Notes under the pieces: model-generated | What the model was told of the DNA's origin: nothing | Databases searched by the model: none | The model's input: only the letters and a program-made list of their open reading frames with translations | Program-made: the position numbers and the translations under genes | Part shown: piece after piece, positions 1-49,939 of the stretch | Layout of the letters: every line of letters begins with the position of its first letter | Numbering within the stretch: the first letter of the stretch is position 1 | Origin: Candidatus Parcubacteria bacterium | Lineage (GTDB): Bacteria; Patescibacteriota; Patescibacteriia; PEXW01 | Assembly (NCBI GenBank): GCA_003597955.1 | Contig: QZJU01000012.1 | Span: 1 to 49,939, forward strand | DNA: 49,939 bases | Reading direction: 5' to 3'

Positions 1-96
1 GCTCCTTTACTTCAGGAGCTATCGAGTGATGTTTTTTCATATGCCCATACGTTAATTAGTCTAGACCGTCGTGTCTAGTATATGGGGGTCAGTACA
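1..96 (-). mobile_element. IS3-family-like insertion sequence, left end (IRL and start of orfA), truncated by window edge
   Basis: Exact reverse complement of 49843-49938. The minus strand starts TGTACTGACCCCC (IS3-type 5'-TG end), and ATG at 40 reads MKKHHSIAPEVKE, an OrfA-like N-terminus. Confidence 0.75.
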
Positions 97-455
97 GACT
101 GAAAAATATAATTCGGCATTCCGTGAGCTCCCCGGGCTATTCTAAAGGCGGTCAGTGAACCCAGAGTCGCCAGCAGGACAATAAGAAAAATTGCCGCAAT
201 GGCTGAAGCAATAGGCGAGGTCCATTTTTGCGGAACAAAGGCAAACTCCAGACCAGCCAGTATCGGGAATGGATTTGTGGGTATGCCGGGCACGATGTTG
301 CCAATAAAACTCAAGATTATTAGTCCAGCTAAAAACCAAGGCGTTTCTAATATATTTACCAGAGCGTGCCTAAACTCCGGGAAAATAATCAGGCTTAGAA
401 GCCAGGGTAGATACAACCAGGTACAGGTTTTTGAAAGCTTGTCCAAAAAACTCAA
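97..455 (-). pseudogene. VTT/DedA (TVP38-like) membrane protein, 3'-truncated by the IS
   Basis: Hydrophobic ORF with PGIPTNPFPILAG and ATLGSLTAFRIAR motifs. GGAGG precedes TTG at 455. The ORF's last residues (VLTPIY) are encoded by the IS end. Confidence 0.55.
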
Positions 456-563
456 ATTTACCTCCTTAAAATATTGATTTTTCAAAGATCATCAAAATAG
501 TCTTTCAAATTTTAGTATTTTTGTCAAGCGGCGGCCTCTGTTTCAAAGGCCGTTTGGACAAAT

Positions 564-47724: not shown

Positions 47725-48618
47725 ATGCTTTTTGATTGGATTACCCTGGGCATTTTTGCAGTTTGCGTGATTGTTTGCGCCGTAATCATTTGGCGCAAAC
47801 TGCCGGCTTTGGCCAGCATTCGCATAGACGCCATTCCAAAGCATCAGCAGGCTGCGCAAAAGCAGGCTCTGCTTGATAAAAGGTTGCAAACCAAACTTGG
47901 CAATTTTGAGGCCCGTATTGTAAGGGGGGTTGAGATGGTTTTTGGGCAAGCTTTTAAATTTTTTAAAAATTTAATTTTGCGCCTAAAAAGGATGGAAAGC
48001 GAATATCGACGCAAGGTGATTACCCAGCAGGCTTTGGACAATCCGGATGTTTTGCGGGCGAAAATCGTAGCAACTTTAAATCAGGCGCAAACCGCCTTAA
48101 ATCAGGGTGACTTGGCCCAAGCCGAACAATTTTTCGTAGATGTTGTAAGTATGGATGCTAAAAATCTTGACGCCTACATTGGCATGGCAGATATCGCGAT
48201 TGCTAAGAAAGATTACGGCAATGCTCGAGAAGCTCTGAATTATGTATTGAAGGTGCAAAAAGACAGTGAGGCCGCATATTTGCGCTTGGGTCGCATCGCG
48301 ACTGATGAAGGCAAACTGACCGAAGCCGAAGCTGATTTTTTGACTACGGTTTCTTTGAACGCGACTACAGCCAGTGCGCATTTTGAACTAGCTGGCATCG
48401 AAGAAAAACTTGGGAATCTAGAAAAAGCCGAAAAGGCTTTTGGGGAGGCAATAAAATTAGAACCGGCAAATCCTAAATACCTGGACGGCCTTCTACAATT
48501 TGCTATAAGACAAAAGAATAAAACCTTGGCTAAGAAATCTTTAGCTAAATTATCCAAAGCAAATCCAGAGAACCAAAAATTGGCGGAGTTATCCAAAGAA
48601 ATTGAAAATTTAGGTTAA
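47725..48618 (+). CDS. Membrane-anchored TPR protein
   Basis: N-terminal TM and about five TPR-like repeats (AY..LG, A...F..AI.L.P). Confidence 0.85.
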   Translation: MLFDWITLGIFAVCVIVCAVIIWRKLPALASIRIDAIPKHQQAAQKQALLDKRLQTKLGNFEARIVRGVEMVFGQAFKFFKNLILRLKRMESEYRRKVITQQALDNPDVLRAKIVATLNQAQTALNQGDLAQAEQFFVDVVSMDAKNLDAYIGMADIAIAKKDYGNAREALNYVLKVQKDSEAAYLRLGRIATDEGKLTEAEADFLTTVSLNATTASAHFELAGIEEKLGNLEKAEKAFGEAIKLEPANPKYLDGLLQFAIRQKNKTLAKKSLAKLSKANPENQKLAELSKEIENLG

Positions 48619-48623
48619 TCTAC

Positions 48624-48771
48624 GCCGATGTAGCTCAGCTGGTAGACCTGCTCGCCTGTCGCCGGGCGCCGGGATAGCTCAGTGGTAGAGCAACTGTTTT
48701 GTAAACAGTAGGTCGGAGGTTCGAATCCTCTTCCCGGCTCCAGGCGATCGGCAGGCGGGGCAACTGTTTTG
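48624..48771 (+). pseudogene. Interrupted 5' fragment of tRNA-Thr(UGU): 48624-48646 plus 48760-48771
   Basis: The joined pieces give GCCGATGTAGCTCAGCTGGTAGA+GCAACTGTTTTG, equal to tRNA positions 1-35. No 3' half follows. Confidence 0.6.
48668..48742 (+). tRNA. tRNA-Thr(UGU)
   Basis: Full cloverleaf: acceptor GCCGGGA/TCCCGGC, anticodon arm ACTGT-TTTGTAA-ACAGT, TTCGAAT T-loop and encoded CCA. Confidence 0.95.
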
Positions 48772-48832
48772 CCTCCCTTGGGGGATGCCCCGGAAGGGCA
48801 ACTCCGGGTTGTTTAAAAAATTGTTTACATAC

Positions 48833-48870
48833 GCCGATGTAGCTCAGCTGGTAGAGCAACTCCATGGTAA
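48833..48870 (+). pseudogene. Orphan 5' half of tRNA-Thr(GGU), ending at the anticodon loop
   Basis: GCCGATG-TA-GCTCAGCTGGTAGAGC-A-ACTCC-ATGGTAA, followed by non-tRNA sequence. Confidence 0.8.
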
Positions 48871-49000
48871 TAAACAGGTCCCCGGCAAAAGAGACAAAAT
48901 CAGCTAACCACAGCCAAGAATCACCGCGAAATGCCATGAGATGGACCTACTCCATCCCAAAGTGGGCCGCGGGCTTCTCAAAAATCATCGTGTACCGTAC

Positions 49001-49273
49001 GCCGTTGTAGCTCAGTTGGTAGAGCAACTCCATGGTGGGCCGCACGCCCCGCCCACGGCCAGGGAAACCTGGTCGTGAATCCCGAATGACGGTCAAAGTC
49101 CGGCAACCCGGATCAGACCGTGGCGCTATCTCAAGCGCCCGAACGACTGACAAGGGGAGCTAACCCCGAAAGGGAAGCTCAAGATACAGTCTAGCCCGCT
49201 TATAGGCTACAAGCCGAAGAAGCGGTGTAAGCGAAGGAGTAGGTCGCCGGTTCAATTCCGGCCAACGGCTCCA
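49001..49273 (+). tRNA. tRNA-Thr(GGU) with intron; exons 49001-49036 and 49234-49273
   Basis: The spliced product is a 76-nt cloverleaf: GCCGTTG/CAACGGC, ACTCC-ATGGT^AA-GGAGT, GCCGG-TTCAATT-CCGGC, CCA. Confidence 0.9.
49037..49233 (+). ncRNA. Group I self-splicing intron (197 nt, no ORF)
   Basis: 5' exon ends in U and the intron ends in G. P4 ACGGTC/GACCGT, P5 TCCGG/CCGGA, P6 GGCGC/GCGCC, P7 GACTG/CAGTC with AAGATACAGTC S-element, P8 GAGCT/AGCTC. Confidence 0.88.
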
Positions 49274-49275
49274 GG

Positions 49276-49308
49276 GAAAAGTACTGCAACGAACTTGCAG
49301 TATTTTTC
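49276..49308 (+). terminator. Terminator-like hairpin after the tRNA
   Basis: GAAAAGTACTGCAA-CGAAC-TTGCAGTATTTTTC. Confidence 0.65.
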
Positions 49309-49321
49309 TAATCCCACACCT

Positions 49322-49842
49322 ATGGACATTTCAACCGCACTTGATAAGTTCTGTGATTATTCTCAGTTCATGCGGGGATATTCGCGAGATACTATAAAAC
49401 GCTATCGAGGGACTGTGCGATTGCTTCAGCGGTTCCTACACGTCCGCCAGCTCGAAGAATGCACCGAGTCTAGGGTTCGAGAGTTCTTTTATCACGGCAG
49501 GCAAGTTCAGCATTGGGCACCGAATTCATTCATTACATACCACAAGTCGCTCGCTGTCTTTTTCAGGTGGTGTGTCGACCAAGGCTACATGCACACAAAT
49601 CCAACCGACGACATGGAAATGCCCAAGACCGAAAAGAAGCTGCCGCCAAAGCTGACCAAGCAGGAGGCCTTAAAGCTACTGGAGATCGTTTACAATTATC
49701 CGTATCCGTACACCTACCAGCGATACCGGAACTATGCGATCTTTGCCACCTTCGTGTATGCGGGATTGCGGAAGAGCGAATTATTGCGCCTCAAAATGGT
49801 CGATGTCGATCTTGCGAATCAATCCATCTATATTCATCAGGG
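49322..49842 (+). pseudogene. Tyrosine recombinase/integrase (XerD-like), interrupted by the IS
   Basis: SAM-like N-domain (GYS..TI..Y, FFRW, NP), LP..LT..E, R..A and YAGLRKSE.L.L...DVD (catalytic Arg box). Breaks off into the IS end before the HxxR/Tyr box. Confidence 0.85.
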
Positions 49843-49939
49843 TGTACTGACCCCCATATACTAGACACGACGGTCTAGACTAATTAACGTATGGGCATAT
49901 GAAAAAACATCACTCGATAGCTCCTGAAGTAAAGGAGCA
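49843..49939 (+). mobile_element. IS3-family-like insertion sequence, left end (IRL and start of orfA at 49899), truncated by window edge
   Basis: Starts TGTACTGACCCCC, is the inverted identical copy of 1-96, and encodes MKKHHSIAPEVKE. Confidence 0.75.

Follow-up and report, generated by a model that had tools for sequence, protein, structure and literature searches.

The locus analysed here raises the question of why, in the genome of a Candidatus Parcubacteria bacterium, the only recognizable tRNA-Thr(GGU) gene carries an insert in its anticodon loop and stands 168 nt downstream of an orphaned 5' half from another tRNA-Thr(GGU), and whether a gene in such a state can work. The window, that is, the whole stretch of DNA analysed (49,939 nt), comprises all of contig C19 from a genome of 990 kb in 21 contigs that is 98.5% complete. 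The evidence presented below makes it highly probable that positions 49001-49273 hold a working, intron-split tRNA-Thr(GGU) gene, carried by a genomic island and replacing the host copy that the same island destroyed. The parts of the gene and the element following it are:

49001-49036, plus strand: 5' exon of the island-borne tRNA-Thr(GGU), positions 1-36, ending ...CCATGGT, last base U36
49037-49233, plus strand: predicted group I intron, 197 nt, 3' end ...GTAAGCG, omega-G at 49233
49234-49273, plus strand: 3' exon, positions 37-76, beginning AAGGAGT, CCA encoded
49282-49310, plus strand: hairpin followed by a T run, terminator-like, read directly between the tRNA and the integrase gene

When the exons were joined in silico, ARAGORN returned a tRNA-Thr(ggt) of 76 bases, in agreement with the direct reading of the sequence, and the original prediction of a 197-nt insert that follows U36, ends in G and leaves a 76-nt tRNA-Thr upon excision is therefore upheld. 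Its description of the insert as ORF-less is right in substance, as the frames crossing the insert measure only 42-68 aa and none lies wholly inside it; the expectation that tRNA scans would miss the gene also proved correct, both default ARAGORN and Rfam at the gathering score being blank. With introns allowed, ARAGORN finds the gene, misplaces the intron and gives the wrong label, tRNA-Arg(gcg). The intron-bearing gene is the sole tRNA-Thr(GGU) among the 43 tRNA genes that ARAGORN calls in this 98.5%-complete genome. Since tRNA-Thr(UGU) and tRNA-Thr(CGU) are called as well, the GGU species may not be strictly essential. A promoter scan of 48550-49400 gave no sigma-70-like promoter, and the terminator scan puts the hairpin at 49282-49310 on the minus strand only. 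In the ARAGORN calls for this genome, tRNA-Trp(CCA) is absent and tRNA-Ile(tat) appears twice; the tRNA-Trp gene may lie in an assembly gap or be split so that the scan overlooks it. An archaeal-type, protein-spliced intron was set aside on grounds of position and taxon: such introns occupy position 37/38, against 36/37 here, require a bulge-helix-bulge motif and are not known in bacteria.

The insert folds with a minimum free energy of -91.4 kcal/mol (z = -6.8), a value matched by 0 of 200 shuffled sequences. Its helices are:

49034-49039/49048-49053, plus strand: P1, with G-C, G-C, U.G at the splice site and then three G-C pairs
49056-49063/49068-49075, plus strand: P2, with loop L2 GAAA at 49064-49067
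49081-49083/49154-49156, plus strand: P3, 3 pairs only, pseudoknot
49089-49094/49116-49121, plus strand: P4, from the fold and RNAalifold
49099-49102/49109-49112, plus strand: P5, from the fold and RNAalifold
49122-49126/49135-49139, plus strand: P6, from the fold and RNAalifold
49145-49149/49187-49191, plus strand: P7, GACUG/CAGUC
49157-49160/49177-49180, plus strand: P8, from the fold and RNAalifold
49194-49195/49231-49232, plus strand: P9.0, two pairs
49196-49201/49220-49225, plus strand: P9, from the fold and RNAalifold

Covariation was assessed on an unguided MAFFT alignment of 24 family copies, from which RNAalifold returned P1, P2, P4, P5, P6, P7, P8 and P9; the P3 pseudoknot and the two-pair P9.0 were then added. 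In this alignment, standard pairs occupy 95.8% of the cells compared with 78.5% in shuffles (0 of 500 as high), and both-sided changes occur at 31 of the 50 pairs compared with a shuffled mean of 20.6; as a control, sliding the partners by 1-3 columns left 28-45% of the cells paired. P1, P2, P3, P5, P6, P8, P9.0 and P9 are backed by compensatory changes. P4 and P7 are invariant across the alignments, so that covariation is uninformative on these two helices. The P1 put forward originally, with U-G at the splice site, is present and turned out to be longer; its G-C, G-C and U.G pairs recur in 24 of 24 copies and the following pair covaries (AU, GU, GC, UA). The P4-P8 core proposed with it was likewise recovered by RNAalifold from the 24 copies, with covariation in P5, P6 and P8. 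Both pairs of P9.0 covary in the same alignment (GC 13 / AU 9; UA 10 / CG 9), and at 63 loci P3 changes from C-G to U-A in 10 cells with 0 broken pairs, counts obtained on an alignment unfitted to P3, which is absent from the model behind its 63 rows.

The loop of P2 is of the GNRA type in 61 of 63 loci, and 16 of 63 carry in P8 a CUAAG...UAUG receptor-like motif, the two presumably making an Azoarcus-type contact. P7 (GACUG/CAGUC) and the J8/7 stretch, where the guanosine pocket is predicted, are invariant or almost so across the 63 loci, and the P3-P7-P8 and P4-P6 core with its P3/P7 pseudoknot follows the canonical order. The introns of subgroup IC3 are small and tRNA-borne, with P2 and without P2.1, P5abc, P7.1/7.2 or P9.1 extensions; the architecture found here, P2 included, is in line with this definition and may be of the type called IC3. 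On such a scaffold, the exon end GGU would pair with the internal guide GCC of the intron, with the U.G wobble of P1 at the splice site, a free guanosine in the P7 pocket would attack after U36, P9.0 would bring the terminal G (49233) to the same pocket, and ligation of the exons would yield the 76-nt tRNA with its encoded CCA.

The insert is not confined to this genome. A blastn search with it against 400 other genomes of the same class gave matches in 25 genomes, 23 of them full-length copies that align across exons and insert, and among 400 other genomes of the phylum 26 had a match, 21 of which were new and 20 of the new ones full copies; a further 21 intron copies came from loci found through the integrase. 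A family model, R1, built from the Thr introns alone, placed 63 distinct copies and supplied their boundaries. Left out were L033 (contig end), L034 and L061 (matches of 31-32 nt, no tRNA) and L062 (same place as L059), while L063 and L127, from the same contigs, took the place of L013 and L029. In 63 of 63 copies the host is tRNA-Thr(GGU), the insert follows U36, the base before it is U and its last base is G, with lengths from 178 to 243 nt (median 201, 63 loci). The survey of Thr(GGU) genes in relatives that had been proposed thus uncovered a same-site intron family of 63 loci, and it qualifies two earlier statements. Thr(GGU) is an "unusual host" against the four classical hosts only, as the intron is present in 26 of 401 genomes sampled from the class and, for the phylum, in 27 of 401 (window genome counted in both); and the "near minimal" size of 197 nt is about average for the family, in which a 178-nt member exists.

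The covariance-model check advised in the original prediction failed, and under the refuting condition set there the claim would fall. On the window, RF00028 gave 11.7 bits with an E value of 3.7 over an odd span that begins in the upstream tRNA half, short of the gathering score of 50 bits; the insert alone gave no match, and the RF00028 search of the whole genome did not report the locus. Only 1 of 20 family members was detected at E <= 1, the Thr intron of L017, at about 25.9 bits (E 1.5e-4, 561-base search) with P1, P2 and the J8/7-P7-P9 part aligned. The miss is a weakness of RF00028, which is too insensitive for the Thr family. The connection to accepted group I introns is provided by introns in tRNA-Tyr(GUA) genes:

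L011:485-769: tRNA-Tyr(GUA) with intron, RF00028 55.1 bits
L015:1726-2000, minus strand: tRNA-Tyr(GUA) with intron, RF00028 47 bits
L017:1147-1443, minus strand: tRNA-Tyr(GUA) with intron, RF00028 78.9 bits
L044:2529-2828, minus strand: tRNA-Tyr(GUA) with intron, ARAGORN alone

R1 matches two of these Tyr introns, that of L011 at 42.1 bits (E 4.5e-11) and that of L015 at 23.1 bits (E 3.2e-5), and since both are RF00028-positive, the Thr family is tied to accepted group I introns. The score of RF00028 on the Thr intron of L017, given above, is a second such link. The Tyr introns of the related genomes L011, L015 and L017 resemble the Thr introns in length (~190-200 nt), in anticodon-loop position and in their neighbouring tRNA genes, and differ in that RF00028 recognises them well and their P4-P6 and P7 sequences are classical; the junction sequences of the Thr introns and their order mirror the Tyr intron of L017 as RF00028 aligns it. 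With L044 included, the Tyr introns measure about 190-216 nt, and in the window genome the tRNA-Tyr gene, on C14, has no intron. Architecture, conservation and covariation thus support the proposal of a group I intron after U36 of tRNA-Thr(GGU): its sequence marks the insert as a small, tRNA-type group I intron, for which splicing itself is predicted. A search for RNA runs covering this stretch returned none. The contigs of four runs, two of them labelled 'RNA? probably DNA', contained no spliced junction of this gene and covered the intron region in fragments only; the joints present in them belong to tRNAs of other organisms and to other anticodon loops. Beside the intron-bearing tRNA-Thr(GGU) of L014, an ORF with LAGLIDADG_3 and helix-turn-helix domains begins 45 nt downstream (L014:541-1386, minus strand), and helix-turn-helix ORFs are similarly placed in L027 and L020; these ORFs may be free-standing homing endonucleases.

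Could the intron be a decayed relic that no longer splices, leaving the gene a pseudogene? The integrase of the window's island is broken and the genome has other tRNA-Thr species, as might be expected of a relic. A relic is nevertheless hard to reconcile with compensatory changes at 31 of 50 pairs around an invariant core, with the U before and the G at the end of the intron in 63 of 63 copies, with perfect exons, and with a genome in which no other tRNA-Thr(GGU) gene exists and the host copy is split. We therefore give decay very little credence.

The working intron so favoured has well-known counterparts. Williams (2020, bioRxiv 10.1101/2020.01.27.920355) raised the bacterial tRNA settings of group I introns from 4 to 21 (17 new), many of these introns coming from metagenomic genomes of unnamed phyla, and designated as site '5' the place after the third anticodon base, in labels such as 'Ile2.5Ug' and 'Arg.5Ug', with subgroup IC3. 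The introns in tRNA-Ile(CAU) of Azoarcus and tRNA-Arg(CCU) of Agrobacterium have the same site 5, the U before, the G at the end, a length of ~200 nt and no ORF, and they share P1-P2-P3-P8 with P4-P6 and P9, the GNRA loop on P2 and, in part, the receptor-like motif of P8. The family described here differs from them in its host tRNA, Thr(GGU), and in its carriers, Patescibacteria. Its P4-P6 sequences are moreover too divergent for RF00028, unlike those of the classical introns, and its IC3 likeness is one of architecture. No use of the label 'Thr.5Ug' was found in the running text of the literature searched. Lui et al. (2021, PMC8172020) report group I introns in tRNAs of completed genomes, nearly all of them CPR.

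The second part of the question concerns the orphan half upstream, which the original prediction mentions no more than it does the integrase gene downstream or the island to which the gene belongs. Here the surroundings of the gene are informative:

48624-48646, plus strand: 23-nt repeat of bases 1-23 of the host half, 100% identical to 48833-48855 (blastn-short)
48668-48742, plus strand: tRNA-Thr(UGU), intact, chromosomal neighbour (ARAGORN; Rfam tRNA 76.3 bits)
48833-48870, plus strand: attL, covering positions 1-38 (5' half) of the intronless host tRNA-Thr(GGU) and sharing 94% identity with the 5' exon
48871-49000, plus strand: island arm beside the crossover core (attP P' arm), beginning with TAAACAGGTC
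49322-49842, plus strand: tyrosine integrase gene, N-terminal ~173 codons, with Phage_int_SAM_4 (3.6e-11) and the start of Phage_integrase (Pfam)
49841-49939, plus strand: end of a repeated, insertion-sequence-like element, with an ORF start at 49900
C10 25457-25501, minus strand: 3' half with attR, no intron, ATGGTAA followed by positions 39-76

The upstream half ends in the anticodon loop ATGGTAA (48864-48870), where unrelated DNA takes over, and the same 7-nt repeat is common to attL on C19 and attR on C10. The acceptor strand of attL, GCCGATG, pairs with CATCGGC of the C10 half and not with the CAACGGC of the island copy, whose own acceptor stem is GCCGTTG/CAACGGC. Rejoined, the C19 and C10 halves give a tRNA-Thr(ggt) of 76 bases in ARAGORN. 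The matching halves and the shared ATGGTAA argue that an element inserted in the anticodon loop of the host's intronless gene. That C19 and C10, which are separate contigs, hold the two ends of one island is suggested by the fit of the halves. The intron-bearing gene lies 130 nt inside the left end of this island. The TAAACAGGTC motif follows the core in many related islands, and an inverted copy precedes the core in the attP-form loci L094 and L109. In the chain of events that we propose, and whose direction and timing we infer, an island with a tyrosine integrase would have recombined with the 7-nt ATGGTAA anticodon loop of the host gene, splitting the host copy, and the intron-bearing copy brought by the island would stand in for the disrupted tRNA-Thr(GGU). 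Near this junction, 186 bases that include tRNA-Thr(UGU) are bracketed by the 23-nt direct repeats.

The integrase gene is cut after ...IYIHQ, a truncation evident against five full-length orthologues of 297-316 aa. The same 96-99 bases occur at five contig ends, namely both ends of C19 (window 1-96 and 49841-49939), C4, C10 and C13, and probably represent an insertion-sequence end at which the assembly broke; the repeated element also cuts an ORF at window 75-485. Because the integrase gene is cut by this element, the island is probably immobile, and thus probably stuck in this genome.

The same arrangement recurs in other genomes. In the class sample, 6 further loci have an upstream half at 153-200 nt, and a Phage_integrase ORF lies directly downstream of the gene in 7 of the 7 loci with such a half (window included), the remaining 17 class-sample loci being ordinary tRNA clusters without integrase. 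Four other genomes offered enough sequence to look for the 3' half, and in all 4 it lies 8.1-13.2 kb downstream, preceded by ATGGTAA and fitting the upstream half; one of them has a second 3' half 2.2 kb beyond the first. In total, the order of half, core, about 150-200 nt, intron-bearing gene and integrase was seen in 22 distinct genomes. This recurrence bears on the view that the intron-bearing gene is native and that the 5' half before it is the scar of a local duplication in which no island took part. The placing of the island ends on separate contigs would permit such a history, and the 23-nt fragment at 48624-48646 is evidence of small local duplications. It would, however, leave unexplained why the acceptor strand of the upstream half fits the 3' half on C10 rather than the adjacent gene, and why the layout exists in 22 distinct genomes with a matching 3' half 8-13 kb downstream in 4 of 4 checked; a native origin of the gene is accordingly most improbable.

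As for the islands themselves, cargo varies among the 4 with both ends and includes a copper ATPase accompanied by a CsoR-type repressor, defence genes (AbiU2, SIR2, SocA-like), hydrolases and a protein kinase. The 54 ORFs in and just beyond these islands contained no phage structural domains (Pfam). Two or three tyrosine integrase genes occur per island (L035, L036, L037, L039), which may be tandem island arrays. A search with an alignment of six integrases as query gave 80 loci, with the following tRNA genes beside the integrase:

Thr(GGU) with intron: 21 of 80 loci
Thr(GGU) without intron: 21 of 80 loci
Lys(UUU): 7 of 80 loci
Other tRNAs: 7 of 80 loci
No tRNA within 2.5 kb: 24 of 80 loci

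The Lys(UUU) neighbours are those of L072, L083, L087, L088, L090, L103 and L128, where the integrase orthologues have ~50% identity, and further orthologues lie beside Ala, Phe and Met tRNA genes; the integrase family has switched tRNA targets. An unintegrated form, in which non-tRNA DNA precedes ATGGTAA, is seen in L066, L094, L109 and L115, and in L094 and L109 the motif found after the window's core stands as inverted copies on both sides of ATGGTAA. Some single loci add detail: L073 (upstream of 2200) has two host-half copies in succession, at 321 and 152 nt before the gene, each followed by the island arm motif, which suggests serial integrations, and one island (L092:2060-2459) has a tRNA-Thr(UGU) between its intron-bearing tRNA-Thr(GGU) and the integrase. 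An 'intron' called by ARAGORN in L123 was rejected as false, for it consists of a host half plus an intronless copy.

Integration of this type recalls the tRNA-dependent lysogeny of actinobacteriophages, for which Guerrero-Bustamante and Hatfull (2024, mBio, PMC10865867) give a common core of ~10 bp. In that system the element is a temperate phage, whose tRNA the lysogen needs to survive. Both systems use a tyrosine integrase and a short core in a host tRNA gene, of 7 nt here against ~10 bp there. With so short a common core, the host tRNA is not rebuilt at either junction, and a short core with unrebuilt tRNA halves was observed in the window genome and 4 others, as in integration of the tRNA-dependent type. 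Set against the actinophages, the elements here are genomic islands of 8-13 kb, their hosts are Patescibacteria, the target is tRNA-Thr(GGU) and, in most cases, a group I intron sits inside the crossover core of the replacement tRNA. No description of an intron in the replacement tRNA was found in the consulted sections of PMC10865867, and our literature searches found no paper describing one inside an island-borne replacement tRNA.

What, then, is the intron doing there? It cuts the 7-nt crossover core (ATGGT^AA) and shifts the right half-site by ~200 bp. It might thereby mask the island's perfect copy of its target tRNA gene from the island's own integrase, so that this copy would not recombine with the attachment site of the island, a possibility that we regard as distinctly tentative. 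We hold it slightly more likely than not that the intron rides along by chance and that the integrase is unaffected by where in the crossover core the intron lies. That the two sites overlap is to be expected by chance, because the anticodon loop is, to our knowledge, the invariable location of tRNA group I introns and is also where many integrases cross over. Seven islands with the same layout have an intronless copy, so the intron is not required. In the unbiased samples, chromosomal genes with no sign of an island make up 17 of the 24 intron-bearing loci of the class and 19 of the 20 that the phylum sample added. Three observations sit less easily with chance. One is frequency: an intron is present in 17 of 24 island replacement copies found via the integrase, as opposed to ~6.5% of genomes at large, the former sample being biased by its queries, integrases taken from islands with the intron. 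Another is the intron tree, on which island and chromosomal copies intermingle and the well-supported branches call for no fewer than 7 switches, so that the association of intron and island does not derive from one capture. The third comes from 29 islands with a visible host half, compared according to whether their island-borne tRNA-Thr(GGU) has the intron:

Island copy with intron (n = 22): anticodon stem equal to the target in 14, different in 8
Island copy without intron (n = 7): anticodon stem equal to the target in 0, different in 7

The contrast between 7 of 7 and 8 of 22 altered stems is significant in a Fisher test (p ~0.004) in which loci are counted as independent despite their kinship, and the 5' exon of the intron-bearing island copies often matches the target throughout. 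If the intron does act as a mask, these figures suggest that intronless islands reach the same end by an altered anticodon stem, and chromosomal alleles with the intron would be protected from this integrase family in the same way. A parallel is offered by collaborative homing in the psbA gene of cyanophages, in which an ORF-less group I intron is associated with a free-standing homing endonuclease. There too, an intron without an ORF interrupts the DNA target of an enzyme encoded next to it and the intron allele is thereby protected; the enzyme in that case is a nuclease, whereas here it is a site-specific integrase and the protection is a prediction.

The intron in tRNA-Thr(GGU) is thus an ordinary member of a family common in Patescibacteria that standard annotation misses, with the result that genomes appear to be without tRNA-Thr(GGU), and the 178-nt member of the family is a possible minimal ribozyme to study. 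It is the island context and the pattern of replacement copies that merit attention. With them, 'tRNA-dependent' integration reaches beyond actinophages to the genomic islands of ultra-small bacteria, and they suggest a testable role for an ORF-less intron of the anticodon loop, which may conceal a tRNA gene from the integrase aimed at that loop. If this were true in general, masking would be a selective reason for group I introns to last in the anticodon loops of tRNA genes.
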